64,000 bases of DNA, taken from NCBI GenBank assembly GCA_024137785.1, contig JAHRHZ010000004.1:33398344-33462343 (forward strand), read 5' to 3'. Below the pieces are notes generated by a model. It was not told where the DNA came from. It was given only the letters and a program-made list of their open reading frames with translations, and searched no databases. This document shows positions 1 through 60,858 of this stretch, piece by piece. Both the position numbers and the translations under genes were made by a program. Positions within the stretch are counted from its first letter, which is position 1. Each line of letters starts with the position of its first letter. The DNA comes from Ginglymostoma cirratum. Lineage: Eukaryota.

Positions 1-1537
1 ACCCTATGAAGTGCACATGCCCTTTTCATGATACCCATAATGGCAGCAATGCTCAGAGATGGTTTCACTGAGAGTTCAGAGATCTCTGGGTCACATAGTA
101 TGTTCTGTATGGATGATGTATTTGGTCTCTGAAGACGTACTCTAGGCATTAAAATAGATTATTTTTAATAAAGTGCCATAGTGCTTCCATATCTGAAGTA
201 TAATATAAAGCAGGAGAATGGTGTGAATTAAGAATTTGGATCTTTCTGTACAGTGATTTGAAATTTGTCCACACTTTACAACATTTGATGTTGGTGGGCT
301 CATGAAACTTTGATCTCATTTTGATTTGATTGGGAGATGAAATCAATGATGAGAAAAGAATTGAGATCTAATTCATACCGTCAATCTGCTATCAGTGGTT
401 GTATTCAATCGCACAAAGCCAAAATACCCCTGTGCAGCTGATTTGGTACTTAACCATTGCCACATCAGTGTGTGGGTTTGCAAGAGTGATTCACGATATC
501 ATTGAGGCAATAAGGAGTTTGTGAATTGCTCAATGCGGAGGAGACTTCCCACCATATTTCAGCTAATGAATAGCTCTGATTTGACATGCTATCCTCGATG
601 AAACTTGCTTTGGATGGAGTGCTGTCTTGAGTTATGAATGCTACAGAGAAGATTATCATCTATTTTTCTGTTTCTAAATGGCCCCAAAACTGATGTCATT
701 AAAGTTGCTTTTGAAAAGAAGATACAAATGTTTTTTACAGATCTAAATCATTAAAGTGGTTTTGTAATTGATGAAGCAGGAATGTTATTTATACTGCGTT
801 TCTACTGAAGGTACCTGTCCCCTTTTGTATTGAGGGAAGTAATCACCAAACAGGGTTGGTAGGCCTTAAGAGCATTAATCAGAATGTTTAAAAGCTTGCA
901 GTCTGATAGTTCCTCAGATGTGATAGGGATCTCGGTCATGTAGGATGTTCTCGGTTGGTGATGTATTTGGTCTGGGAAGTAGGATGACCCTACTGTGGGC
1001 AGTAGAACTGATTATTTTTAATAAAGTGCCAAATAACTGCAGTAATTGTGATAATATTATACCATAGGAGACTGGTGTGAATTAAGAAGCTACCCCATTT
1101 TCAGACCTTTTATCAGGGCTGCGGTTCATTGAAGATCAATATCAATGTATCAGTTTTGAGAATTGATTAACTACTACGATTGATATTGATTTAAGCCACA
1201 TTAGATTTTCACTTTCAATCTGCCATCCTATAACGTGTCTTGTATTACAATATCGAATCTGCTGTTGGTCAGCATTAGGGTAAGGCATCAGTGGAAATTA
1301 GCATCCTGTTTCAAAACCCAGTTGAAATCTTGATACATTTTCCCTTGTCTTATACAGATAGTTTTGTGTTGAGGAAGAGTGCATTTGCAAATTGCCATTT
1401 GTTTGGGAATCCATGCTGTCCTATGTTGCGCGCATTGTCTGAATTGTCACAGATTTTTATTTTCTTTTGCATTTTGTGCTGTGACCCTGGATGTTAGCAG
1501 CTGAAATTTAACCTTCCTTTCTCTTATGTGACTACAG

Positions 1538-1665
1538 AAGTGCCAACACAACACCAAGGGCCTCCGGTGTGAGCGATGTGAGTCCGGTTTCTATGGCGAT
1601 GCCAGAGGTGGAACTCCAAATGACTGTAAGCCTTGTCCTTGTCCAGGAACCACTCCCTCAAATCG
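1538..1665 (+). CDS. HSPG2: Perlecan exon, domain III laminin-EGF ([42 protein letters not shown])
   Basis: cag| acceptor, |gtgag donor, phase 0/2; resembles human perlecan GCQHHTEGPRCEQCQPGYYGDAQRGTPQDCQLCPC (recalled). Confidence 0.95.
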
Positions 1666-1818
1666 GTGAGTTTCCTCTTTTTGTTTTGAAAACTAAAACT
1701 TACTTTGCTGCAATTTGCATTGTAAGAAGAATGCCATTTATTAAGAAAAACACTTGGTCCCTTTCCCTTTCAGAGATTTTATTAGAAGTCCACTATTGGT
1801 TAATGTAAATGAAGCTGT

Positions 1819-2126
1819 TCATAGAATTATAGAATCCCAAAAGGTCATTCGGCCCGTCAAACCCACACCAACCCTCTGAAGAGCATCCCACCAAGACCTA
1901 ACCCCTATCACAGCATTTCCCACCCTAGACACTGCGGGCAATTTAGCATAACCAATCCACCTCACCCGCACATCTTTGGACTGTGGGAGGAGACTGGAGC
2001 ATCCGGGGAAACCTAAATACATGGGGAGAACATTCAGACTCCACACAGTCGCCTGAGGCTGGAATTGAACTCGGGTCTGTGGTGCTTTGAGGCATCATTG
2101 CTAGCCACTGAGCCAACGTGTCACCC
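1819..2126 (-). mobile_element. HE1-like tRNA-derived SINE
   Basis: Minus strand has a tRNA A-box (TGGCTCAGTGG) and B-box (GTTCAATTCC), a CTCCCACAGTCCAAAGATGTG core and a short-repeat tail. Confidence 0.85.
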
Positions 2127-2549
2127 CAGTTTGCAAAAAATAAATGCTGCAATAATTCGATATTCAACCTTCGTAAGCAATTGTTAATCATTAACTATGC
2201 AATTTGGGAGAACAGCTTAAGAAGCTGCCTCTTCTTTGTGTCTTGGAATGATTTTTATGAATGTGGGGCACACTCCTGTTCTGGTATCATTACTCGTTAT
2301 TCTCCCATTGCTGGTAACCATTCTGTTCCTTCAAGCCAAGCTCCCCAAGAATGCATCAGTTGCTTTTTATTTCAGAAGATGAAATGATTTGTATTATGTT
2401 GAAGATGATCATTAATGCCAAACGTTCCGCTTTCTTCCACCCACAATGAAAAAGCAGCGTTCCACGCGAGTTTTTTGATTGGGTTGCATAGACTACATTG
2501 ACATGTCAGTTTAAAATTTGATTTTTAAGAAAAGATCACAGGGAGAGAA

Positions 2550-2950
2550 AGAAAAATTAGGTCTTCTCTGTAAAAACAAATGCCTAGCAGGCAACCTAAT
2601 CAAAGCCTTTAAGAAAATGAAAGGCCTTGACAAGGTAAGAATAGCAAAGATGCTTCCATATGTAGAGGCGTTGAAACCCAGTCTAAGAGGAAGAAATCCA
2701 GTCTAGAATTGAGGAGAAATGAGTTTAACTGTAGAGTGATTAGAATGTAGACTTCACGACTCAAACAAGGAATAGTTGAGGCGACAGACGTAGATACAGA
2801 GGGGATGCGAGGTAAGCACATGAGGGAGAAATGAGTAGAAGGAGATGCTGATGGTGTTTGATGAAGAGAAATGGGAGGCGTCTCAAATGAAGCACAAACA
2901 CTGACATTGACCAGTTAGACTGAAAGGTCTGTTTCTGTGGTGTGCTCTCT
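2550..2950 (+). mobile_element. Degenerate CR1-type LINE 3' fragment
   Basis: Residual GNLIKAFKKMKGLDKV, resembling the CR1 ORF2 C-terminus. Confidence 0.65.
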
Positions 2951-3078
2951 ATGGTGGAGCACCGGAGGCAGCATCTCTTATTGTACAACAAACTCTGCCA
3001 TGTATCCTGAGTAGGAAGGAATGTTGCTAGAACCATAAATATAATATTTTGCAGGAACCAGGCAGTGTTTTACAATGC

Positions 3079-3180
3079 TAGAGATAACAAGGTGTAGAGC
3101 TGGATGAACACAGCAGGCCAAGCAGCATCAGAGGAGCAGGAAAGCTGACATTTCGGGTCGAGACCCTTCTTCAGAAATGG
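3079..3180 (-). mobile_element. Penelope-like terminal fragment with hammerhead core
   Basis: Near-identical to the end of the 54338 element; flanked by direct repeat GTGTTTTACAATGC (3065-3078 and 3200-3213). Confidence 0.75.
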
Positions 3181-3574
3181 TTTTACCATGTTTTTAAAGG
3201 TGTTTTACAATGCGATTGTTTATTTTTTCCATCCAGTCCTTAAACAAAAAGCCTCACAGATGTATATGGTGACATAGTGCAGTTTTACTAACAGCAGTAT
3301 TTTTAGTAGGTGTGTTGAGTCCACCTGTGAATAACACCCAGTATGCTGCTTTCAATCCAAAACAAAAATTACTCCAACCTCAGTCATTGAGCTGCAATAT
3401 GTTTACCATAAACTGAATTGCAAGTTATTGTTAACTCATGATAAACCAATGATCTTGCTGCTGGGACAGACTAACAGTTAAATGAGTTGTGACAAATCTT
3501 AGTAAAAGAGCACAGAAGAAAAATAGTGGCATGTTTAAATTGTAGTTTTTCAACTGCGGTAGGGAGGTCCAAAA

Positions 3575-3852
3575 CTGGAAGGCATATGTTTAAGGTGAGA
3601 GCAGAAAGATTTAAAAGGGACCTGAGGAGCAACTTTTTCACACAGAGGGTGGTGCATATATGAAACAAGCTGCCAGAGGAAGTGGTAGAGGTGAGTACAA
3701 TTACAACATTTAAAAGATGTTTGGACAGGTACATGGATAGGACAGATTTAGAGGGATATGGGCCAAATGCAGGCAGGTGGGACTGGTTCACTTTAGGAAA
3801 CCTAGTCAGCATGGACGAGTTGGACTGAAGAGCCTGTTTCTGTGCAGTATGG
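3575..3852 (+). mobile_element. CR1/HER1-like LINE 3' end
   Basis: Typical shark CR1 3' sequence (AGGAGCAACTTTTTCACACAGAGGGTGG...GGACGAGTTGGACTGAAG); similar copies elsewhere in the window. Confidence 0.8.
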
Positions 3853-3974
3853 GTGTGTGATTTGTCACTTGTATCACCAAGCTTAAGTAGCTGGTGCAGA
3901 AATTACTTTCAAGAATCTAGAAAGGGTCGGTGGTTGGCTTATGTCTATTTTCAATGCTTTAATTGTTCACTCAG

Positions 3975-4061
3975 ATTCTCCTCGACTTGTTTCCTGGATG
4001 TAGATGGACAGGCAACTTGTGATCGTTGCCCTAGCGGTTATGAAGGCAGGAACTGCGAAAG
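3975..4061 (+). CDS. HSPG2: Perlecan exon, laminin-EGF (RFSSTCFLDVDGQATCDRCPSGYEGRNCER)
   Basis: tcag| ... |gtatag, phase 2/2; perlecan-type TCFLDxDG motif. Confidence 0.95.
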
Positions 4062-6749
4062 GTATAGTTCACCAAGACACTCCTGTGCCTTAGTTTATCA
4101 TGGCCATTTTTACTGTATGTTATTACTTCCTGTGTGGGTACTCCAATTAATTAACCCAAAGGCCCACTTACTTAATCCAGACAGAGTTGCTTCAGTGTGG
4201 TGTCATTTCCAAGAAACAACATCGATTCAGATATCCTGATCCCTTCATCGGACCATTTGTACCAAGATATGTTTCTATTTAATTCGTGTTGTTTACTAAA
4301 TGCCGCAAGTAAAATACCTAAACCTGAACTAACGTATATAATCCAGTTACTGTCCAGAGAAATCTCAAGCTCCGGTGAAAGAGTTTGATTTAACTGAGTC
4401 GATAGCAGCCTCCTTGCATTTTCACCAGCAATTCTCTGACTACAAGGAGCTAGCTGAATATGGGATTTAATTTGAAAAGCAAAGAGCTACTTTCGGATTT
4501 TCAATAGAAACCTGCTTTCTTTGTTATGAATATCAGCATCAAAATCATAAAATGGCTTTTCGAAGAGTCGATCAGTGTCAATTCAACACACTGTAAGACC
4601 TGGTTTGTCCAACTCCGATAGAGAAGGGATGGCGGTCTCTTTTGCCTGAATGTGCAGCCCAGTGAGCATGAGATTGGTTCATTTCATGGTGGGTACAGGT
4701 ACTCAAGATGAGTTCACAGTGAAGCCCCTTAGTGCAGTGTGTCACTGCTGCCACTGATAGCTTCCTGCAAAGAAAGCAAAGTAACATTGAAAATCTTTCC
4801 AAGGCAGCATTCCATTCTTTGTCAGGATAATGACACCACACACCTCTGTTGAAAGCAGATAACTCACATGTAGCTTCTCCCAAACTCTATACGCTAGACT
4901 GAGCATGCAGGAGAATAACTTAAAGAAGTTATCAACTGTCGTGAAATGAGCTGAAAGCACAATGGTTTATTGTTTGCACAAAATTACAGTCATACAAAAT
5001 ATCCTTAATATAGCCGTTTAAAATTGCCTGTGTTCTTCAGTTGTCACTGCTCTTGGATTATTCTGAGTGTCGTTGACATGAAGCATATGATCACTGACTG
5101 GTAATGTAGCGCAGTATATCAAAACCAATTTTTTACAGAAATAAACCCCCACCAAGACAGGATCTTCTGCATGCTATATGTCTGGAGTCTAGGGAGAAGC
5201 CAAGGTTTAAATCGTAAACATTATTGGACTGATCACTCAATAACTACCTCACTGTTTGAGGCAGAAGCTGCAAGGTAGAATGGCTGGCTGTTGAGCTGAC
5301 TTTAACGGCCATTAGGATATTCCCTGTTGTTGTCCATTTTCACCATTGGACATATTTTGGGTTCATTGCCAAATCTGTTTGGTTTTTAGAAGGAAAACGG
5401 AATTCCTTTGGGCCACTATGGAAGCCAGAGTCTGATCATTAACAGATTCTTTGTCAGCCACTGAAGGCTGCCACTTTTTGACCAACAGACTTTCAGCTTC
5501 TGTAATAGGGGCTAATAGTAACAAGATATGTTGAGCCTTACTTACTGTGGAAAAGCCTTAGAGCTTTGCATGACTCAGTTGGAAGTTGGTGCTTTCTGTT
5601 ATGGGGTTCCTATGTAGTTGCAGGTTGATGATCTTAAGGTGCTTCTTGGTGGCTTGATCTCTCTATGTCTGTACTGACGGCTGACTGTAGCGATGGTGAC
5701 TGCTGTACATTTTTGTCTGTTATGGTCCTTTCACAATGTCAAACATTGATTCATGGGAAGTAAGATATGTATCTGCTACTTGGTTTGACACTATTTCAAG
5801 AGTATAGCTTTTATTCTTCAGGCTGGGTATGAATTAAATTTAATTGTAAGCAAGAAATTTGTCAACTAATGTGAGTTGTTGACTTGTACTGAAGTATCTG
5901 ATCATTGGTAGGATAATGCAATAAAACAAAGCTTTAATGGCCTTCCAAATGATGGTTCATCATCTACTGAGTTGAAAGCAACAGTTGAGTGTCTGATGAG
6001 ATTTGTCTTTATGGTTGAATATATCCCTCCCACGCTGTCTCTTGCAATGCCACAGTCTGCCCCAGTCCCGCAATCCAGTTAGTCTGCATCTGTCTCCATA
6101 ACAGTAGGTGCTAATTATGAGAGTTTGAAATGAGAGTTTGGAAGAATTCCACTTACCTGTTTAATCACTCATTTTTGGTAAGATGTTTTGCTGGGATGTC
6201 AAAGATTTTGATGTCTGATTATCCCCATGTTGCAGCTGACCAGATTGACTTGGGGCCACCCTCAGCTGTTGCCTTCCACTGTGGAACTTCCATGTTTACC
6301 ACAGCAATTCACATGACAATTAAGAGCAACTCAATTTACTGATGTGTTTTATAAACATATTTATATTCTGGGACTGTATGTTTGTTGGATCGGAAGTATT
6401 TTTCCTCAAGTTCATGCTCAGCCCAAAGTGGCGAGTGGAATTTCCCCAGCTCTGCCAAAAGGAATCCTTTATCAAGTAGTTTGGTACAGTGTCAGTTAGC
6501 TTGCACATAGGGAGGGACCTGTTTTTAAAAAAAAAAAGGGGGTGTGGAACTGGTAGTCTCACTGAGAACAACCAGAAGATAACTGAAGAAGGAAGTAGAG
6601 CATTTGCGTTGGCTGTAGAGATTCTGAAGTTGGAGTTGAGTTGCCAAATAGATATGCAACAATTTGGAGATGATCGTCATTCATCCTAATGTTATGGCAT
6701 ATTCACTTCCTCAAATTAGATTCCTCAACTTAATAAGAACTTCTAGATT

Positions 6750-7260
6750 TAGAATCATAGAATCATATGGTACACAAATGGACCATTCAGCCCATCATGA
6801 AAGAGCCATCTGCTTGATTCCATTCCTCTGTAATAGGTCTGCAATTCTTTTCCCTTTCAAGTATTTTTCTATTTTGAGTTATGATTGAATTCTACTTCCA
6901 CCACTCTTTCAGACAATGTATTCCAGGTCATAATATTGACAGTGTTAAAGAAAAACATTTCTTCATCTTCTTCCTCTGGTTCTTTTTAATACTTCTGTTG
7001 TGTCTATCTGGTTACCAGTCCTCCTGCCAATGTAAGAAGTTTCTCTTTATTTACTCTATCGAATCCTTTGTGAATTTCAACACCTCTACCTTCTTTTAGG
7101 AGAACAACATAAGTTGATATTGTTTATTCACATAATTGCTATTCCAGTAAATCTCCTCCTTTCACCCCCTCTAAGATCTTTGCATTCATCCTACAGTATG
7201 GTGCTCAGATTTAGATGCAGTAATGTAATTGGGGATTACTTTTACAGAGGTTTTGTGTGC
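6750..7260 (-). mobile_element. Degenerate CR1-type LINE 3' fragment
   Basis: agaatcatagaatc tail and CR1-like body on the minus strand. Confidence 0.55.
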
Positions 7261-8266
7261 CTGTTCTAATTTTCTACTGCACTGTAGAATTGTTCTTTGC
7301 AGCTATGCAATTTTGTAGGTGCAGAAATGACTTTTGATCTGCTGAGCTTAAAAGCTTCAATACCCTGGAATTCTCTCAATTTAATTGTCCTCTGTAAACA
7401 GGTGGTGCTGAGTTGTTACTGTGTAACTGGACGTGTTTGCAGGATTAACTAATGAAGGATTTTCGTCTTCCAGCTTTGACTTGGTAGATGTCAACCTGAG
7501 GAGTTGGGCACGGCCTCGGGTTAATGCCTCACCTGATTGATGGCATATCTGATCCTGCGGAACTCCCGCAATACTGCACTAAAATTGTCAGCCATGATTA
7601 AGTGCTCAAGACTGCAGAGTTAGACTTGAACCCCTGAATTACTGCTTGCAGGACAGAGTGCCCCCCCCCCCCCCCCCGCCGAGTTATGCTTATTGTGCTT
7701 ATTCTATGCATATAGCTGTGGCACCTCACTAGGCAAAGTGGAGACATCTGTGAGCAAAAGAAAGTAACATTGTCGCTATTGAAATCAACCCTACATCTCA
7801 ATGTGGAAACAGAGTTTGAGAATTCGATAGAACAAGTTGTTTTTAAAAAGGTGTAGGAAAGATTTGAGGGAAGTTTCCTCAAAAAATCAAAAATGACAAA
7901 CCTGAAATGAACTTGAATTTTTTGCTTGGGTAATCATTTTCCTGCAGATGTTTAACCTTCACGTCATTGTCTCCAGGCTGTCCTGTTCGGCTGGCCTGCT
8001 GCATAGCTAAGTGGAAAGATCCCACAGTGGCTCCATTTCAGTTACTCAATTACAGAATAATTATCCTGTTGGGCCACTTTGAAATTGTGCCCCTGCAACC
8101 CCAAATCGTCCAGTCCTCAAGTCAACCTACTGCAGGACACCCTTCCTATAATATGTGTCAGTGGAGTGGCTCAGCAAGAATTGAGCTCCTACTGTAGGTT
8201 CCGACTTATTCTGATATATCTGCTGACACGAGGTACATAGGGTTCCTTTGTCTTACCATCTGGAAA

Positions 8267-8566
8267 TCATAGAATCCCTACAGTGTGGAAACAGGCCCTT
8301 CGGCCCAACAAGTCCACACCGACCCATCCCCCTGTTATCCACCTAATCTGGACATCCCTGAGCACTATGGGCAATTTAGCAAGGCCAATCCACATAGCCC
8401 ACACATCTTTGGACTGTGGGAAGAAACCGGAGTACCCCGGAGGAAACCCGCGCAGACACAGGCAGAATATGCAAGCTCCACACAGACAGTCGCCCGAGAG
8501 TGGATTTGAACCTGGGTCGCTGGTGCTGTGAGGTAGCAGTGCTAACCACTGAGCCACCATGCCCCC
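8267..8566 (-). mobile_element. HE1-like tRNA-derived SINE
   Basis: Same family as 1819-2126; A/B boxes and GGGATTCTATGA tail. Confidence 0.85.
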
Positions 8567-8814
8567 TTCTGTTGGCATCTTCCCATTTTTCCACAATAAT
8601 TGGCACACTTCATTGGGTAATGGAAGAAGTTTCATTTTTCTTCATACCAAGTTTCATTTTTCAAAAAAATGATTTCATCGTTTCATTTGCTGATCTGAGT
8701 GAAGTGTTCCCACAAATTGCTGTAAAAGTCATTTGTGAAATTCAGGAATTTCTTTTCTGATACGCACAAGTCCAGGGGTGAAAAATTTCAGTTACAAATA
8801 AGGATTGGAGAAGT

Positions 8815-9195
8815 TCAAAGGAAAAAGGCTAAGAGGAGATCTAACAGAACTCTTCAAAAGCACAGGGGGGCTGGATAGAATAGACATGAGAAACTGTTGT
8901 CTCTCATAAAAGAATCAAAAGTGAGAGGATTCAGATAGAATAATTTTCAAAAGTAGCAGAGGTAAAGCATTTTCGTGCAACGAGTAGTTAGAGTCTGGAA
9001 CACTGTGGAAATGGGGTAGAATCAGGTTCAGCTGACATTAAAGTGGGCACTAGATAATTATTTAATTAGAAATAATATACAGTGTGTTGTGGGGGGGGGA
9101 AGGTCAGGAGAATGGCACTGAGCTGTAATGCTTATTCAGAGAGTCAGTGCAGGCCAAACAGCCACCATCTGCTGTGTAACAGTTCTATGATTCTG
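8815..9195 (+). mobile_element. Degenerate CR1-type LINE 3' fragment
   Basis: AGGCTAAGAGGAGATCTAA (RLRGDL) through TTCTATGATTCT tail. Confidence 0.65.
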
Positions 9196-10707
9196 TGGGG
9201 TCAAATAATAAAAAGATGAATTCCATTGATTGTAACTCATCATTTGAATACTCTAGCTCTCCCATTATTGCATCCAGCTGTGTAATGTATGTTTCTGATT
9301 TGGTTTTACTGCTGTGCCTGGGGTGTTTGCTCAGAGGTTTTTACACTGTGTGAAATGAAAATGTACTTTGCAGCTGTCCTGCACCGAGGAGATAATTTGA
9401 ACCACTGAACAGAACTCGACTTGTTTGCACTATTAACCCTTGGAGCAGACTCATTTTGTTCTTGATCCTTTGTTGTCGGTTTAATCCTTGCCACAGCTGG
9501 CATCTCCAATTTGTTGATTTAGGTGAAGCTAAATCATCTAGAAAATGGGCTGTGTCTTGAAGACCTCACTTATTATGCAGCAGGTAACGGGAAAATGTTC
9601 AGGCAGTTTCCATTAGACCATGTAAACTGATCATATCCATTGAATTGCTTAAGCTCACTGCATATTATTCACTTTGAAGTAATTTCCATTCAAATTGGAT
9701 GGCCAGCTCCACTGTCGGTGGCATAGTGGTAATATCATTGAACTGGTAATCCTGTGGCCCAGGCTAATGCTGGGGAACAAGTTCACATCCCCTCATGGCA
9801 GTGGGTGGAATTCAAATTCAGTTAAATAAACCTGGAATTGGAAACTAAACATAATTTTATCATTGCTTATCACAAAAACTAGGGGTCTCTACATGTTCCT
9901 TAATGGAGGAAAATCTGCCGTCCCTACCAGGTTTTCTTTGCACATGACTCAGCAATGGAGCTGTCATTTACTGCCATCCAAAATGGCCCAGCAAGTCACT
10001 CAGTTCAATGTTGAATGTTGGGAAACCTTGAGGCCCCCGTTCTGTCAATGTTAGGATGGTACTTCCTTTTCATTCCGGGTCATGAGTGCATAATTTGTGC
10101 TGCTTGACCTGGTTTGCCACCTTTTAAGTGTTGCACTTCCTGACAAAGAGCTCAGTTTGCTTTCCAGCTTACGACATCTACAGTAAAGTTCAGGGTGAGA
10201 ATTTGCTTCTGGACTGGGAGTTGTTTTCCTTTTTGAGGATTGTACTGAGATGAGGTGCAGGTGAATACAGACTTTGGTGCAAGGATAATAATTGACCTTC
10301 ATGTACAGACTAGACTTGGGACCTTTGCTTTAATCACTGCCTAATCTAGCTCTTCTGCTACGCTTCTGCTGCTGACTAACCTGTGCACTAATGTGGGGGT
10401 ACCATGTTGGCTATTTGTTGGTCAGGGCTTGCAAACCTTGCAGTGTGTTGCATAAAGCCTTTCCACACTGATACACAAGTACTGAACATACATGAGAAAA
10501 TCTACTAGGCTGAAATAAGCCTATTGTTGTGAGCAATAGAGCCTTCAGCACACAGTCTTTGTGCTTCAGTAAAATAGTCCAAAACAAAAAGTCTAAAGTG
10601 AAACCAATCTAAACTAACCAACTAGCTGTCAATCTGAGGCCAAATGATCGTATTCAATGTAAATATTTCTTTAAAGAAGGAAAAGGTGTTTTTGTTTGCT
10701 GACCAAG

Positions 10708-12637
10708 ACCTTTTAATCCTTTAAGAAGAAATCTAACAGAATTCTGCAAAGTTGGGATTCAGACGGTAAAGCTGGAGTCCCAGATGCTGATTCCAATTGA
10801 ATGTGAGAAGAATGGCTTCAGAAATTTCACTGGCAATGTTACAGAACCTGGTCCGAGCAGAAAACACATGGCCAGTAACACTACTGCTTTAGCAGAAACA
10901 TCAGGCAATGCTTCCAGCCCAGCTGCAGTTACTGTGCCAACAATTCTGCCAGCCAAGACCACCACAAAACGGAGGATATATAATCTCAGGCACCTGATGA
11001 AAACATCTCTGATTGGCTTCAACAGAAGGCTAACCATGTTAGAGGACACAGGTTTGGACCTTAAAGATGGCTTGAAACATTTACAGAAAAGGCAAGACAA
11101 CTTAAGCTTGCAGTTGAAGAACCTCACCCGTATGTTGTCAGCCCCTCCTAAAGACAAACTGATCTCCGACTTGCAATGGAAGTATACAGATGTCGATAAC
11201 AAGTTGACGGCTTTGCAAGTAAGGCTGGAAATTCTTATTGATGGTTTTGCAGCATTGGCTGAGGAGATCTCCGAGCTAAAGAAAAGGAGGATTTCGCTCA
11301 CCAACAGTGATCAAGCAGATCTCACTGTAGTCACCACTAGTTCTCCTGCAAAGCCATTGACAAAACACACCAGAACTAACTTAAAAGTGAAGCTAACATC
11401 TGACGGAAACCACAACAAAACCTCAAGTTTTGTTTCCAAAAGACCTTCGGTTAAAAAACCCAGTCTCCCCACACCAAGCAGAATGAAGAGCAAAATGTCT
11501 CGCTTTCACAGAAAAGCAGCTACCACCGTCGTCTCTGCGACAACTGTACAAAGACATGTCAGATCCACAGCTGCTCCTCTGCAATCTACAAGCAAAGTCC
11601 AGGTGAAGAAGAAAGTTAAAGTGTCTATTAAAAATAATGGGCATAAAAACTCAGCTGTGTTTGGTAAAGGCCAAGCTGTTGTTAAACAGATCCCCACAAC
11701 AGCGATATCTGCAGTAACAATTACGCCTGCAGTAACCCTTGAACTAGTCTCATCTACCACACTGTATTCCAACATAACTGTGGTCACCATAGAGCCCAAG
11801 ACATTGACAACCCAGCCCATTCCCACAGCTGTGGTAGAGAAACCCACAAAATCACACTTACCAGCATTGAGGACAAAAGTAAAACCTAGTTACATAGACA
11901 TGGTAAATAATGCAACGATCCCAGTTAGGATTAAGGGTAAAATAAACTCCGGTAATAAAACCGTTACAAAGTCTAAAAGTAAAACCAAACCTGGTAAAAA
12001 TGGAACTGGGCACTCTGAGCATAAATCGAAACCTGGTACAAAAACATCAACACAGTCTCAAGTTAAAGCAAAACATGGTAGAGAAGGAACAACAAAACTC
12101 CTTACTACAACCGTAAAACCCTCAGTGACAGCAACACGGAATAGAGTTAGATCTCAAAAGCATAAAATCAAAAGCCCGTCGTCAGCAGATAGTACTAATA
12201 CATCCATCCACTGGACAGAAAAGACATTGATTAAATCAGGGGCTGCTGCGTTGTCTGCAGTGACAGCACAGCCTAAACCTGTGGGCAAAGTGAGAGAACG
12301 GCCAAAATTGGTGTTTGCCAGGAAGATTCCTGAAAAGGCAGAGACCCTGTTGACACTTAGCACGCCACTCCCAGCAACTGCGTCCGCCCAGAAAAGATCT
12401 GAAAGTCGAGCAATGAGTGGACCACAGACTCAAAACTGTGATGACAATAACCGTCCCAGAAAGAAACTAGCAGAGGGTAGAAGGAGAAAGACAAAGAAGG
12501 CAACTGCTCTAGACATCCTGCGAGTACTGCGAGGAGAGCAACGACACTCTTCCAACTCACATCGCAAAAACAAGGACCTGCCACTCTATATTACTCTGGG
12601 TCGCCTAGCCATACCAATAAAAATTATCCCAGATTGA
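10708..12637 (+). CDS. Candidate alternative last exon of HSPG2 (about 642 aa: coiled coil, basic mucin-like stalk, hydrophobic C-terminus); alternatively a nested gene exon
   Basis: 1.9-kb stop-free frame (open from 10703; 617-aa ORF from ATG 10784); pyrimidine tract tgtttttgtttgctgacc-aag| gives a phase-2 acceptor matching the 4061 donor; not transposon-like. Confidence 0.75.
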
Positions 12638-13480
12638 TGATCTTCTCTGCTGGCTTTTAGAGTTCACTCAACATAAAAGGCATGAAGACATTTCCATCTA
12701 ATAGCTGGTTTTGTGCATGAGAATCCTATTTGTTTAAATGTAAGATGGAAATTCACTTAGAGGTTTTCAAGATTCTTTTGCACTTACTGTATAAAACAGT
12801 GTACAAATGTTTATCAGAAGTTTTGAAGGTATTATGCAATGTAGTTTGCAAAAGTAAATGTAACTCATTTCAAACATCAATGAGGTGCAAGTAACTACCT
12901 CGATACAAGTGATACACTTGGTTTCCTTTCGTTTGTTCTGCAATATCTGTACAGAAACCTATCTGCTGTAGTAATTTATTGAATTCCACAAACTAGTCTC
13001 TTTTTGGTTCAAATATTGATTGACAGTGCCCAAAGAAAATGGGCATCAGATTTTACCTCCACATGTACTTAGATTGTTTTCAGTAGATTGCTTGTGATTT
13101 ACCTGCTGAAGGATTATAGGTCATTTCATTTTTGAGTGTTTGTCTTGTTGCATTGCATACTCTATGTCCCTTAGACCAACTAAATCCAGTAGTCAATTAG
13201 CTGCATTTATGTGATCAGACAATGTGTGCAAGTAAGAACCTCCAAGGTGAAAATCCTAAGGTGTAAAAAGATCTGAAGTTCAAATCTGTTAACTGTTCTG
13301 ATTCTGGATGAGTCTGGACTCAACAACTGGCTCAATTTATTTCACTTAATAACAGTCGCTTCCATACATCATCAGTGCCATTTTGACAAATGTTTGCATT
13401 GCCAACAAGGAAATGAAACCTAATAATACTACATATTGCTGTGTGTAATGTTTGAAATAAAATCTTGAATGCAGCACTGA
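12638..13480 (+). other. Putative 3'UTR of the 10708-12637 exon, with polyadenylation signal AATAAA at 13456-13461
   Basis: AT-rich, no recognisable repeats, follows a TGATGA stop; first AATAAA I found after the stop. Confidence 0.55.
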
Positions 13481-13911
13481 ATGCAGACTATTAAGCAAAT
13501 ATATTTTGGATTAATGATTTTTCTGAAATTATCACCCCAAAGAAACAATTTTTTAACTTTCCTTATCCTCCCTGTATCAGTTTCCGTACTGCATGACTTT
13601 ATATTCATACAAAGAGGGGGAAAGGTGAATAATGCAAATCTCTTCAGGTTCCATGCCACTTAATCCTGTGGTAACACATCAACCAGATGCTCTTCCCAAT
13701 GCCCACAATACTGCACATCCTGCAAATCTGAAATGGATACAGAAAAAGCTGAAAATAGTCCGTCTGTCTGGCAGTATCTGTGGAGAGAGTAGGAAAGCAA
13801 ACGTTTCTGGTTTGAGACCTTCGACTAGAACCCGTTTTGGAGAAGGCAATCTTCTGGGGCTTCACAACTGTTTATTTCTTATCTGTCACTTATCTACGAG
13901 AAGAGCAGGAT

Positions 13912-14120
13912 GTTGGTTAGTTTAGTTGGCTAGCTGGCTGGTTTGCAATGAAGTGTGTCACCAACAGTGTGGGTTCGATTCCTGCGCCAGCTGAGGTTAC
14001 CATGAAAGATTGTCCTTCTCAACCTCTCCCTTGTCTGAGGTGTGGTTACCCTCAGGTTAAACCACTACCTCTCTCTCTGATGAGAGATTAGCCATATAAT
14101 TTGGTAAGACTATAGTGACT
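13912..14120 (+). mobile_element. tRNA-derived SINE (older copy at about 51005-51260)
   Basis: A-box-like tagtttagttgg and B-box GGTTCGATTCC followed by a non-tRNA body. Confidence 0.6.
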
Positions 14121-14289
14121 TAACAGTTTTTTTAATAAGGGAAGCATTGCCTATGTCATTTTAAATAGATTCATACTGTTAGGTTAAATAGGGGTATATT
14201 TCCCTGCATCTCTGACCTTAGAGATGAAAAACTGACCAGAATAAAGTGGAGAATAGCAGGTTATATTTACATCCAAGCATACTAATCCG

Positions 14290-15250
14290 AAGCAGTGATA
14301 GGCCATTCAGTCTTCGAGCCTGTTCTGCCCTGCAATAAGATCACGGCTGAATTTATGTGGCCTCGACCCCATTTCCTGCTTACCCTGATACTTATCAACT
14401 CCCTTCTTAGAATCTATCTCTGTGTCTGCGTTGAAACTATTCAATGACCCAGCCTCCACTGATCCCTGAGGAAGAGAATTTCAAAGACATATGACTCTCC
14501 ATAAGAAGATATTGCTCCTCATCTCCATCTTAAAGGGGGCACCACCTCATTATATCCTCTATGTCCTCTAGTTCCAGTTCCAGTTCCTCCTAGAAAAGGA
14601 AACATCCTCTCAGGATCACTCCAGTTCCCCTCATGTTGTTTATATTTCAATAAGGTCTTCTAAACCCCAATGAATACAGAACAAGCTGTAGAGTCCAATC
14701 TTTCCACATTATTCCAGGAATCAGTCAAATGAACCTTCCCTGAATTGTTCAAAACTGTAATTATGCTCTTTTCCTAAATATGGAGATTAAAATTGTACTT
14801 ACAGACTTGGTCTATGCAACTATGGTAAAAGAATCCATTTTTATGTTTCATTCACCTTGCAAGCAATGCCAATATTCTGTTGACCTTCCTGATTACCTGT
14901 ATGTTAACTTATTGTGATTCATGTACCTGGGCATCCAAATCCCGCTATACCTTAATGTGTCTCCATTTAAACAGTAAGGCCTCTTTCTGTTCTTCTTGCC
15001 AAAGTGCGCAAGTTTATATTTTCTCATCTTATAGTCCATCTACCAAGGAACTGCCTCCTCACTTCACCCATTCATACACTTTTTGGTGTCGCCTTTATAA
15101 ATTACTTCCTTACTTCCCTATGTAGCATCAGCAAATTGAGCACCTGTACATTGGATCCCTTTGTCCATGTTATTGATGGTGATCGTAAATCATTGAAACC
15201 TCAACGCTGATGGTAGTGGCACTCCACTTCTTAGATCTTGCCTAACTGGT
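14290..15250 (-). mobile_element. Degenerate CR1-type LINE fragment
   Basis: Minus-strand CR1 3' end (taggccattcag...) and decayed RT remnants. Confidence 0.6.
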
Positions 15251-16089
15251 CTGTCAGTTCCTGCTTTCTTTCCCTTTCTTTTGTGAATAGAAAGAATTCG
15301 TTATTTTCCCATCTGATTTCCAGGCTTCCTAGAATCTAAAGAATTAAAACCACATTAATTTCACGTAAACCAAAAACAAAGAACTGCAGATGCTGGAAAT
15401 CTGAAATGAAAGTGTAGTCCTGAATTAGGATCAGTGGACTGGAAACGTTGACTCTGCTTTCTCTTCACAGATACTGAAAGACCTGCTGAGTTTCTCTGGC
15501 ATTTTCTGTTTTTTTAATTAAATTCACATACTCACTCAGCAGCCATGTATTTTAAGATGCTAGGATGAAGCCAAACTGCATCTCTTTGAATCAACTCTGC
15601 TAAAATTAGCAAAGGAAAGAAAATATGCCCCACTCTTGCTGCTTACTAAAACTCTGTGGAGTTTTATTTGCTTTTAGCAAGTTTTGATCTCCTATGTCTT
15701 CAATCCAGCTCATTTTCTTTCTAACTTTCAATTGATTGAAGTCGAATATTGTGTAGTTCTTATTACTCCCAAATGGTGGCGATCTTGCATTTAAGGTCCT
15801 CATGTAATCATTGCTTCCATAGCTTATGGACCACAACCTACTTCTAGAAGTGGTAATAAAAACAGAAGGTACTAGAGAAACTCAGTAGGTCTGGCAGCAT
15901 CGGTGGAGAGAAGAACAGAATGAAGGTTTCAAGTACACTCTGACTTCAGAATAAATTCACATCTTCCCACATTATACTTGTGATGAATCCTTTCTTTTGT
16001 ATGAATTCTTTGAGCTGCAGAAGCCAGCACTCTGAGATAAAAAATACTTGGGCACACTTATTTCTTTTGGCAACATCTTGAAACTAGGA

Positions 16090-27093: not shown

Positions 27094-27143
27094 ATGTGCT
27101 TCAGGTTACACTGGAAATCCAACATATGGACAAAGTTGTACTA
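27094..27143 (+). CDS. HSPG2: Perlecan exon (RCASGYTGNPTYGQSCT)
   Basis: ttacag| ... |gtgagt, phase 2/1; cf. human RCAPGYYGNPSQGQPC. Confidence 0.93.
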
Positions 27144-28042
27144 GTGAGTATCTGAACTTAATGACAATTAATGCTGATTTTTAATTCTGCATTCTCTACC
27201 TGATGGAATGAAATGAAACTTGAGAATAAGTCACTGGATCCAGATGGATTGTATCCATTGATGCTCCAGCTATGGTCTCCCCATTGTCCTGTACAGTTGT
27301 AGCAAGTCTGCCTTACCCTTGTACACAGTACTTCAGGTGCAGTCTCACCAATGTACTGTACTTTTGCACTCCAAACCTCTTGCAATAAAGGCCTTCTTAC
27401 TTACTTGAAAATTAAGTTTAATTCCTCAGCTGCCATGATGGGATTTAAACTCAAGTCTCTGGAGCTGTGGACCCGGTCTTTGGATTACTAAAATTTGGAA
27501 TACTTTTCCGCTACCTCTGTGTTACTCGATTAAGTGTCACATAAGTGACTTGGACCAAAGATCAGAAAACACAGAATCAAGGGTCAGGTAGCAGAATGGG
27601 TTTGGAAGGTGGCTTGAAATGGAGCAGAGAGGAGGGAAATAAGGGACATTTCTTGGACCAGCAGAAAGTGAGAAGTGCTGTCCCACAGGTCGTCATGCTC
27701 AGACGACTGTTGTTGGAACTGTAAAAGTACGGTGTTGAAATTTGAAGATGATGCCATCTTGCTGTTATCGTTAATGTAAAAGAATGTCTCACACTACAAG
27801 AAAAGATAAGTTGGTGGATAAATAATTTACATTCAATATATTGATGTGTTCGGTGGGTTTTTTTGATGTGATTGATGTAAGAGGCCATTTTTATTCATTA
27901 GAAAGTAAGAAATTAGATGACGTGGTGGTGGGGAAAGACATGGGTACATAGATGCATAAATAACTCAAAAGCTTGGGTGCAACTATTAGAAAAGGTTGTG
28001 AATTCGTTAGGCGGGAAAAAATACTGTAAGAGGAAAACTAAT

Positions 28043-52993: not shown

Positions 52994-54337
52994 GTGACCA
53001 CATCAGTGTTTCTCTGATCTTCTCTCCAAATGCTACTTAATGCAAAGTCAATGACAATAAGCTTCCTTTGTAGTTTGCCTTAAACATATTGCTGCTGTGA
53101 AGCACTTTGAAGTTTTATCAGACATAACCTAAGACTGAAGGACGTGAGGTGTTAGAGAAGGTATGACCGAAAGCTTGGTCAAGGAGGAAGCTTTTAAAAT
53201 GTGTCGCAAAGGAAGAAAGTAGGTTGGAGAGGTTTAGGAAGAAATTTCAGAGCTTCAGCAGCTTAAGGCACAGAGACCAAGAGAGGAGCAATTAAACTCA
53301 GGCTTCTGCAAAAGTCTGGAATTAGAAGACTGCAGATATCTTGAGGATCAGGGGACATTACAAGGATAGAGGGTAGCAAAGAAAGGGATTTGAACAGGAG
53401 GGTCAGGTCCATACATTATTTTTCCTTAGTATTTTCCTTCCATTTTACCTATGTTGAGTTGCCTGTAATCAGGTAAAACAATGTACCATCCATTTTGTAA
53501 CTGAAGCAGTGGGCAATCTGGCCATCCACAGGAGTAAGTTATCTGGGTATCCCAAGTTTTAGGAAGTAGGATTCGGTCACAAAGATCAAAGCTGATGGTC
53601 CCATCCATACTCATCACTAGCATGCTGGCTACTCGGCAGGCAGAGGACGCTCTCACCTCTTCACTGTTCACTGTGACCAATCCTTGGCAATGAACATCCA
53701 CCAGTTATTCAGCCATGAAGTTTGTTGTAGCCAGACCTCACCCAGGCGGCATACACACCCCTGTACCTTCTAACAGGGGTTTTCCGTAGGCCCTTCTATT
53801 GTGAAGGCTGTGTTAATATGAATAAACGTGATACAATAACCAGGCCACTTGCAGGTATTGGTGTATGAGGCAACCTTTGACACCTTAAAATTCCTCCAGA
53901 ATTGGGGGTCAAGTTATATGCTGAGTATTAAAGTGATCCACTGGCGTCTGTGTGGGTTCACTACATGGGATCTGTTCTGTGTCACCATGCCTTAAACTAC
54001 CTTTGAAACATCACCTGTAGCTGCCGCTTCATCCTGTGCCTTCACGTAGAAGACACTGGGAAGTAAAACATTCATTTGTGGAACGACAAATTGAGACTGA
54101 CTGTTAATGTGAGCATTGTTTGAGAGCGGGACGGGTGATGGAATTGACTTATATCCTGAATACGTGCAGAAAACATGATTTTTGACGCTGAGAAAATAGG
54201 GTTGCCTTACACATTAGATTGCATCTTACAAGTCAACATATAGTATTTATTTTAAGCATAGTTCTTTCCCCCAAGTGTGAAGTAGCTTAAAGGCAAAAAA
54301 TGAAAATAAGTAAGAAAGGTAATAATGAATGAAGAGG

Positions 54338-56124
54338 GATAAAACGTTGTGGAGCTGGATGAACACAGCAGGCCGAGCAGCATCACAGGAGCAGGAAAGT
54401 TGACGTTTCGGGTCGAGACCCTTCTTCAGAAATGGGGGAGGGGAAGGGGATTCTGAAATAAATAGGGAGAGAGGGGGAGGTGGATAGAAGATGGATAAAG
54501 GAGAAGATAGGTTGAGAGGAGACAGACAGGTCAAAGAGGCGGGGTTAGAACCAGTGAAGCTGAATGTAGGTGGGGGATAGGTCAGTCCAGGGAGGACGGA
54601 CAGGTCAAGGAGGCGGGTTGAGGTTAGTATGTAGGAGATGGGGGTGGGGCTTGAGGTGGGAGGAATGGTTAGGGAGGTGGGGACCAGCTGGGCTGGTTTT
54701 GGGATGTCCTTGGGGGAGGGGAGATTTTGAAGCTTGTGAAGTCCACATTGATACCCTTGGGTTGCAGGGTTCCCGAGCAAAATATGAGTTGCTGTTCCTG
54801 CAGCTTTCGGGTGGCATCATTGTGGCAATGCAGGAGGCCCAGGATGGACATGTCGTCCGAGGAGTGGGGGGAGGGGGGAGGTATGCGAGTCGAAATGGTT
54901 CGCGACTGGGAGGTGTAGTTGTTTGTTGCGAACTGAGCGTAGTTGTTCCACAAAGCAGTCCCCAAGCCTCCGCTTGGTTTGCCTGATGTAGAGGAGGCCA
55001 CGACGGGTACAGCGGATGCAGTATACCACATTAGCAGATGTGCAGGTGGACATCTGTTTGATGTGGAAGGTCTTCTTGGGGCCTGGGATGGGGGTAAGAG
55101 GGGAGGTGTAGGGGCAGGTGTAGCATTTGCTTTGGTTGCAGGGAAAAGTGCAGGGGTGGTAGGGCTGGAGCGGAGTGTGGAGCGGACAAGGGAGTCAGAG
55201 AGAGTGGTCCCTCCGGAAAGCAGACAAGGGTGGGGAGGGAAAAATGTCTTTAGTAGTGGGGTCAGATTGCAGATGGCGGAAATGTCGGAGGATGATGTGT
55301 TGGATTCGGAGATTGGTGGGGTGGTACATGAGGACGAGAGGGCTTCTGTTTTGGTTATTATAGTGGGTAGGGGGTGTGGGGGATGAGCTGTGGGAAATGC
55401 GGGAGACATAGTCAAGGGCATTTTCGATCACTGTGGAGGGGAAGTTGTGATCCTTGAAAAACAAGGACACCTGGGATGTTCGGGAGTGGAATGCCTCATC
55501 TTGGGCGCAGATGCGGCGGAGGCGAAGGAATTGGGAATAGGGGATGGCCTTTTTACAGGAAGGTGGGTGGGAGGAGATGTATTCTAGGTAGTTGTGGGAT
55601 TCAGTAGGCTTAAAATGGATATCGGGTTCCAGGTGGAGGCCAGAGATGGAGACAGAGGGGTCCAGGAAGGAGAGAGAGGTATTAGAGATGGTCCAGGTGA
55701 ACTTAGAGTTGGGGTGGAAGGTGTTGGTGAGGTGGATGAACTGTTCGAGCTCCTCGTGGGAGCACGAGGCAGTGCCGAAACAGTCATCAATGTAACGGAG
55801 GAAGAGATGGGGGATAGGACCAGCGTAGTTCTGGAAGAGGGATTGTTCCACGTATCCTACAAAGAGGCAGGCATAGCTTGGGCCCATGCGGGTATCCATG
55901 GCCACCACCTTTGTCTGTAGGAAGTGGGAGGAATTGAAAGAGAAGTTGTTGAGTTCAGCTAAGCGGATGAGGGTGTCAGTGGAGGGGGACTGGTCGGGCC
56001 TGCGGGACAGGAAGAAGCGGAGGGCCTTTAGGTCATCAGCATGGGCGGGACAGGAAGAAGCAGAGGGCCTTTAGGTCATCAGCATGGGAATGGGACAGGA
56101 AGAAGCGGAGGGCCTTCAGCCATC
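54338..56124 (-). mobile_element. 5'-truncated Penelope-like retroelement (RT C-terminus, GIY-YIG endonuclease, terminal region), frameshifted
   Basis: ORF 55195-55908 has MGPSYACLF...RYIDD; ORF 54817-55053 has NVVYCIRC...LLYIRQTKRRLGDCFVEQ (GIY-YIG); 15-bp TSD TAATGAATGAAGAGG (54323-54337 and 56125-56139). Confidence 0.92.
54401..54430 (-). ncRNA. Minimal hammerhead ribozyme motif in the Penelope terminal repeat
   Basis: Minus strand reads CUGAAGA-A-GGG-UCUCGA-CCC-GAAAC-GUC-A. Confidence 0.65.
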
Positions 56125-60771: not shown

Positions 60772-60858
60772 GTTTTCTCCCATCTGTGAAAGTAGCGGAG
60801 TTGGTGGGTACAGGTGTACAGCATGCCTCCCTGGCTACACAGGCCAGTACTGTGAGCG
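60772..60858 (+). CDS. HSPG2: Perlecan exon (QFSPICESSGVGGYRCTACLPGYTGQYCER)
   Basis: tacaag| (AAG acceptor) ... |gtaagt, phase 2/2. Confidence 0.95.

Follow-up and report, generated by a model that had tools for sequence, protein, structure and literature searches.

An alternative last exon in a domain III intron very probably gives the perlecan gene of jawed fish a second end

An intron of the perlecan gene (HSPG2) of the nurse shark, Ginglymostoma cirratum, contains a long open reading frame. This raises the question of whether the frame belongs to perlecan, to a gene of its own or to a transposon. We analyzed a window of 64,000 nucleotides (assembly GCA_024137785.1, contig JAHRHZ010000004.1, positions 33,398,344 to 33,462,343), and positions below are those of this window unless another contig or locus is named. 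Taken as a whole, the best explanation is very probably that the perlecan gene of jawed fish has two ends, one of which lies in this intron.

The host intron and the probable splice into it

The plus strand is free of stops from 10703 to 12637, and the list of open reading frames gives 644 amino acids from stop to stop, whereas the longest frame in 30 shuffles of the window has 205. The original prediction had described a 1.9-kb stop-free frame on the gene strand, of non-transposon origin and set in a 23-kb intron, and this description holds. The intron spans 4062-27093 (23,032 nt), the frame is single-copy in its own genome (one match each for DNA, coil and C-terminal queries), and a Pfam scan of the frame at E≤1 gave no match. 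A transposon-derived frame was rejected on the single genomic copy and on the lack of any transposon or Pfam domain. An Rfam scan of the intron gave 0 matches. Elsewhere in the window, overlapping long frames on the minus strand (54247-56070) resemble, on visual inspection, a broken retroelement of the reverse transcriptase plus GIY-YIG kind, and GC content and skew spike over the same stretch.

Many exons across the window encode domain III of perlecan. On contig C4, 60-125 kb upstream, the plus strand carries four domain I/SEA exons, in the same orientation as the frame. Taking these together with the domain III exons and with the domains of orthologous models, we found domain I/SEA, four LDL-A repeats, Ig and laminin-B/laminin-EGF (LE) exons in HSPG2 order on one strand. 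The features around the frame are as follows.

1537..1665, plus strand: LE exon of perlecan domain III-2, 80% match to residues 1136-1183 of the bamboo shark model P0001, common to both proposed isoforms
3975..4061, plus strand: last shared exon, which stops after Cys6 of an LE module and has a phase-2 donor
10699..10728, plus strand: 3' splice site of the alternative exon, with branch-point candidates at 10699 and 10713 and a short pyrimidine tract
10729..12637, plus strand: coding part of the very likely alternative last exon, 635 amino acids plus stop, placed by contig geometry and homologues
12638..15400, plus strand: unspliced 3' UTR, seen to 14500 (X3 contigs 14-16) and extrapolated to about 15400
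27094..27143, plus strand: canonical next exon, which encodes Cys7 and Cys8 of the LE module and competes with the alternative exon, donor at 27144

The exon at 27094-27143 was the sole candidate in a scan of 4062-29900 for a phase-2 AG followed by Cys-x-x-Gly-Tyr. The exon at 60772, previously taken for the canonical competitor, is a later, paralogous LE exon.

Four public runs (X1, X3, X11 and X12) were aligned to positions 1300-14500. Run X3 is not recorded as RNA, and we treat it as such because it contains a GT..AG spliced joint and empty intron bins: exon 1537-1665 is spliced to 3975 over a GT..AG intron in both X3 and X1, and X3 has zero depth in four intron bins (4387-6150) and a depth of 29 over the alternative exon. 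Contig 9 of X3 (4007 nt) carries perlecan exons 1537-1665 and 3975-4061 and ends one letter past 4061, as expected if the path splits there into two possible next exons with A as their first letter. Competition for the donor at 4061 is indicated by the exon at 27094-27143 and by this contig end.

This geometry locates the acceptor. Since both next exons begin with A, the branch contig should open with 29 exon letters plus A. The last three letters of the exon equal the three before each possible acceptor, so the first window match should fall at 10705, 10723 or 10726 for acceptors at 10708, 10726 or 10729, respectively. Contig 14 (3026 nt) matches the window from 10726, beginning at contig letter 27, indicating that the acceptor is 10729; of the three sites, only 10729 predicts both contig numbers. 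Contigs 14/15 and 15/16 overlap by 30 letters, and X3 depth in the acceptor bin is 18.1, against 18.15 expected from contig 14 alone. The splice was read from this geometry, the 4061-10729 joint itself being absent among the joints listed (15 of 193). Together with four of four gene models that make the same junction (see below), these data strongly indicate an in-frame splice from 4061 to 10729, and the frame is very likely an alternative last exon of perlecan.

The original prediction of an in-frame last exon that truncates perlecan and adds a coiled coil is therefore supported by RNA-derived contigs and by all four models, with corrections. It had placed the acceptor at a caag at 10707/10708; contig geometry and the bamboo shark model place it 21 nt further on, and the tail has 635 amino acids, not 642. 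As main sites, 10708 and 10726 are ruled out by contig geometry. Minor use of 10708 is possible, as contigs drop rare forms. By sequence, geometry and motif scan the site is a tandem AAG-AAG acceptor of which the second AG is used. At this tandem (10723-10728) the first AG would add one Arg, and the contig shows the second only.

Use of the exon is supported by one of the four runs, X3. In X1 the exon has a depth of 2-6, not above intron background, and the upstream junction is present at 11.4; X11 and X12 hold almost no perlecan reads and are uninformative on exon use. Mean depth in X3 is 48.7 for the upstream contig 9 and 29 for the tail contig, a hint that the alternative exon is a major form in this run, although contig depth is a poor measure of level. 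The same contigs bear on whether transcription starts at a promoter inside perlecan, yielding a product in which the tail is preceded by no more than a part of domain III. In favour of this, short contigs do not tie the tail to exon 1; yet the upstream contig is unbranched over 4007 nt and deeper than the tail contig, depth being a rough guide, and we consider an internal promoter very unlikely.

The X3 contigs pass the stop codon and run without a splice to at least 14500, beyond the 3' end previously placed near 13480. Poly(A)-type hexamers occur at 13456, 14240, 14786, 15343, 15517, 15855 and 15950. The last X3 contig would end near 15400, at a repeat, and the contig breaks coincide with repeats at 13710 and 15383. 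Two 50-nt arms of an inverted repeat (13739-13788 and 15460-15509, 72% complementary), parts of dispersed repeats, lie within or at the edge of this long 3' UTR, which also holds the three differences between X3 and the window.

Anatomy and conservation of the tail

The tail has four parts.

10745..10804, plus strand: conserved Cys pair, tail residues 6 and 25, followed by a sequon
10982..11284, plus strand: coiled coil, tail residues 85-185, two heptad segments and a Pro-Pro break, then basic residues
11285..12499, plus strand: basic, low-complexity linker rich in Ser, Thr and Pro, tail residues 186-590
12500..12637, plus strand: C-terminal motif, tail residues 591-635, a short amphipathic stretch and then a hydrophobic end up to the stop

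As predicted, two Cys open the new exon. Both are found in 20 of the 20 database rows that reach that far, and a sequon follows the second in 16 of the 21 rows scored. Their spacing is 19 residues here and 13-19 elsewhere; that of the canonical Cys7 and Cys8 is 14. The coil has a conserved heptad repeat: the hydrophobic fraction at a/d positions is 0.78 vs 0.19 in one segment (p=0.005) and 0.91 vs 0.09 in the other (0 of 5000 shuffles). The linker (405 residues) contains 81 Lys plus Arg, 18 Asp plus Glu and 103 Ser plus Thr. One X1 contig reads C for A at 11849, which changes linker residue 374 of the tail from Lys to Gln.

We counted 13 sequons in the tail, the number first reported, against 6.3 expected (p=0.0055), and 13 against 5.7 in the bamboo shark. 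The excess is absent in most bony-fish tails (2 against 3.9 in P0003, for example), and as a sign of secretion, the use made of it in the original prediction, it is limited to the two sharks. No signal peptide is evident on the frame, as had been noted: no strong hydrophobic stretch lies near its start, and the strongest hydrophobic 15-mers are at tail residues 326 and 619. Pfam scans of 18 tail members gave only generic coil families, at E≥0.003 and in at most 3 of the 18; the best hit of a PDB profile search was a designed coil at E=0.27. The ESM Atlas gave no usable match for shark residues 1-200 or for a teleost-like tail, which is not in itself evidence of novelty. With no match in Pfam, PDB or the Atlas, the tail would belong to no known family.

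A HMMER scan of 1.84 billion representatives found 18 relatives of the tail, with no nematode-like match among them. The closest named relative, at 81%, is the bamboo shark Chiloscyllium punctatum, whose 1837-residue model P0001 reads CER and then NLTEFC, the 10729 junction. The other named relatives are Acipenser sinensis (P0004 and P0021, both flagged UNVERIFIED_CONTAM), Goodea atripinnis (P0008) and, partially, Astyanax mexicanus (P0014). All four models with a perlecan part (P0001, P0004, P0021 and P0008) join the tail after the same LE exon; they are predicted gene models from three distant lineages. Pfam assigns four Ldl_recept_a, Ig, two Laminin_B and EGF_laminin domains to P0001 and P0004. 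P0001 seems to lack part of the first laminin-B module and the signal peptide, and P0021 has duplicated exons in domains I and III, probably artefacts of assembly or prediction.

These homologues also bear on whether the frame is a separate gene nested in the intron, with its own promoter or first exon, the fused models being prediction errors. Gene predictors can fuse neighbouring frames, most homologues were found as stand-alone ORFs, and in-frame ATGs occur at 10784, 10868 and 10997. We nevertheless regard a nested gene as extremely unlikely: the contigs agree letter for letter with a branch at exon 3975-4061, models from three distant lineages predict the same junction, and the homologues share no start codon, the conserved first Cys preceding the first in-frame ATG. 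Three Met-started versions of the frame are absent from the protein collection.

Conservation of the tail is patchy. Identity to the window over the coil is 97/101 for P0001, 69/83 for P0002, 52/101 for sturgeon and 37-45/101 for full-length teleost-like rows, and over the C-terminal motif 43/45 for P0001 and 18-23 of 40-43 for bony fish. The last 17 residues hold seven invariant columns among 18 rows and are conserved up to the stop. Identity of the linker is 318/400 (80%) for P0001 and about 10-20% for bony fish. Between the two sharks, then, the coil matches at 97/101, the neighbouring LE exon at 25/28 and the linker at 318/400. That coil, Cys pair and C-terminal end are kept and the linker drifts suggests that the tail is translated and functional. 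Teleost-like tails have a short mid-linker motif in common (consensus TKFQLEPPSH, alignment A1), which some rows repeat and which aligns weakly to shark tail residues 350-358.

In a tree of coil and C-terminal motif the window groups with P0001 and P0002 (support 100/100), sturgeon has its own branch (97/94), and 19 teleost-like rows lie beyond (100/96). Four of the 28 rows (P0008, P0019, P0020 and P0023) were left out for missing segments, and P0014 and P0018 are long branches. No named tetrapod occurs among the homologue rows; as perlecan clusters may conceal fused isoforms, this suggests loss of the exon in tetrapods only weakly. A search for fused annotated isoforms with the 18-row profile returned only P0001 of 7998 candidates; it failed to recover the known sturgeon models of such length and is therefore uninformative on RefSeq or tetrapod isoforms. 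A metagenome scan gave one locus among 216 pattern matches, L003, whose positions 2-1036 cover the 3' portion of a teleost-like tail with 47% identity to P0003. This contig is probably host DNA, and the absence of a perlecan exon in its 4 kb downstream is uninformative on synteny.

The proposed short perlecan

We propose that acceptor choice at a single donor decides between two products. Splicing of 3975-4061 to 27094 would lead to full-length perlecan; splicing to 10729 would add the 635-residue terminal exon, and the mRNA would end in the intron. The short form would have about 1,850-1,900 residues and stop after the second laminin-B/LE block. By the models it would keep domain I, the four LDL-A repeats, the first Ig and two laminin-B/LE blocks, and lack III-3, the Ig domain IV and domain V/endorepellin. 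The models thus bear out the original view that domains I, II and part of III (two thirds) are kept and domain IV and endorepellin lost.

LE modules pair their cysteines 1-3, 2-4, 5-6 and 7-8, and the last LE module of the short form would keep the first three disulfides. The new Cys pair would more likely than not close a replacement fourth loop, and otherwise would link chains. On the basis of its heptad repeat, the coil would assemble chains and likely bundles two or three of them into a multivalent N-terminal bouquet. There is about an even chance that the linker, probably O-glycosylated, serves as a flexible polyanion-binding spacer and that the C-terminal motif docks on a partner or on itself.

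Proprotein convertases could modify this arrangement by cutting at the basic residues that directly follow the coil; the N-terminal perlecan would stay oligomeric, and the linker with the C-terminal motif would be released as a separate peptide. The furin consensus is R-X-K/R-R. Read by eye, the window and 25 of the 26 listed database rows, all except P0014, have a K-R or K-K pair on the C-terminal side of the coil; however, most of these sites do not fit the strict consensus, and basic residues often cap helices. We regard such cleavage as a live variant, though rather unlikely.

The short form would be secreted by perlecan's own signal peptide. Human perlecans truncated by disease mutations, including truncations in domain III, stay in the cell (PMC6266596), so secretion of the short form is not guaranteed. 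Retention of this kind, together with use of the exon in one of four runs, would fit a splice that mainly throttles full-length perlecan, its truncated product being retained or degraded and its tail having no extracellular role. We judge this highly improbable, since the coil, the Cys pair and the final 17 residues before the stop are strongly, if patchily, conserved across sharks and bony fish, and since up to 14500 there is no downstream splice that would trigger decay.

Among the known ligands of perlecan, nidogen and fibronectin bind to domain IV, integrin, nidogen and fibulin-2 to domain V, and FGF18 to domain III (PMC6266596). The short form would therefore lose the main basement-membrane and receptor anchors. 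Its LDL-A repeats and the retained part of the growth-factor-binding region would be present in several copies, and the polycationic linker with its conserved tip would provide a new tether. The switch would trade the domain IV-V anchors for self-assembly, producing a ligand-presenting perlecan oligomer.

Laminin chains carry laminin-B and LE domains and then a coiled coil of about 600 residues, with Cys near the coil start. The short perlecan resembles them in domain order and in the Cys near the coil start; it differs in its coil of about 100 residues and in having no LN domain, and no laminin coiled-coil Pfam family was found in 18 tail members at E≤0.1. The laminin-chain-like architecture first suggested thus stands as domain order only, and membership among laminin chains was rejected on the coil length, the lack of a laminin coil family and the absence of a PDB hit below E=0.27. 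Several matrix proteins are oligomerised by short coils, namely thrombospondin/COMP, matrilins, tenascins and EMILIN/multimerin. As in these, a short coil with Cys close by could confer multivalency on a modular protein; no sequence link to them emerged (PDB best E=0.27, Pfam generic E≥0.003).

The short isoforms of C. elegans unc-52 end after domain III, and we know of no coiled-coil tail in them. Like the form proposed here, they are short perlecans arising by alternative splicing, and they are functional (PMC6266596). Human short HSPG2 transcripts also exist. The 'miniperl' (AF479675) and mast-cell forms are described as domain I or domain V pieces of unknown function, with no mention of a new conserved domain, in contrast to the short fish form (PMC6266596). 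Full-length vertebrate perlecan, described there as monomeric (PMC6266596), shares the gene and domains I, II and part of III with the short form, which lacks III-3, IV and V and gains a 635-residue tail without a known family.

We found no published description of such an isoform in full-text literature searches, in which subscription journals were mostly absent. GenBank entries of the tail carry the name 'hypothetical protein', and RefSeq or Ensembl isoform lists may contain the exon unnamed. The exon is very likely a real and old alternative last exon of perlecan, apparently undescribed. Vertebrate perlecan is treated as one monomeric protein of five domains with few, poorly understood variants (PMC6266596). 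A conserved isoform without domains IV-V and with an assembly domain would change this picture for fish, and probes, antibodies and knockdowns directed at domain V would miss it. As the exon can be deleted in a model fish with full-length perlecan untouched, its role is directly testable.

Ser-Gly sites and heparan sulfate

We found no Ser-Gly before the SEA module in domain I, here or in the bamboo shark model, and none of the 14 candidate exons in the 4-kb intron of domain I supplies one. The stretch before SEA (G000:C4:33273090-33277329; L005, L006 and L009) has Gly-Ser-Ala and Gly-Ser-Thr, and retained heparan sulfate chains thus cannot be assumed. Likewise, zebrafish perlecan lacks the domain I SGD triplets, is heparitinase-sensitive by its authors' unpublished data, and has a heparan sulfate attachment site that was not located (PMC2315682). 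Given this parallel, mammals may have gained their SGD triplets later, or the triplets may have been lost twice. In zebrafish, knockdown gave one and the same phenotype whether domain I, III or V was targeted (PMC2315682), so no separate early role is seen for the short form, if zebrafish has one.

The tail bears on the open question of the zebrafish site (PMC2315682). The window tail has one Ser-Gly in its first 120 residues, with one acidic neighbour, which is absent in P0001, and an acidic Ser-Gly is found in 16 of 19 non-shark tail rows, some of them near-duplicates. As a hypothesis drawn from these sequences, the acidic Ser-Gly found in most ray-finned tails could be where heparan sulfate attaches in fish perlecan, a position not so far located, with the limits that a site in the tail cannot explain chains on the full-length form and that three rows lack the motif.

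A broader history is possible, if doubtful. The terminal exon would be at least as old as the split of sharks and bony fish and ancestral in jawed vertebrates. It would make disulfide-stabilised, oligomeric half-perlecans, provide a heparan sulfate site in ray-finned fish whose domain I lacks SGD triplets, and have been lost toward land vertebrates. Within the tree, P0013, P0015 and P0025 form a well-supported teleost-like branch that is without both the acidic Ser-Gly and the sequon after the second Cys.
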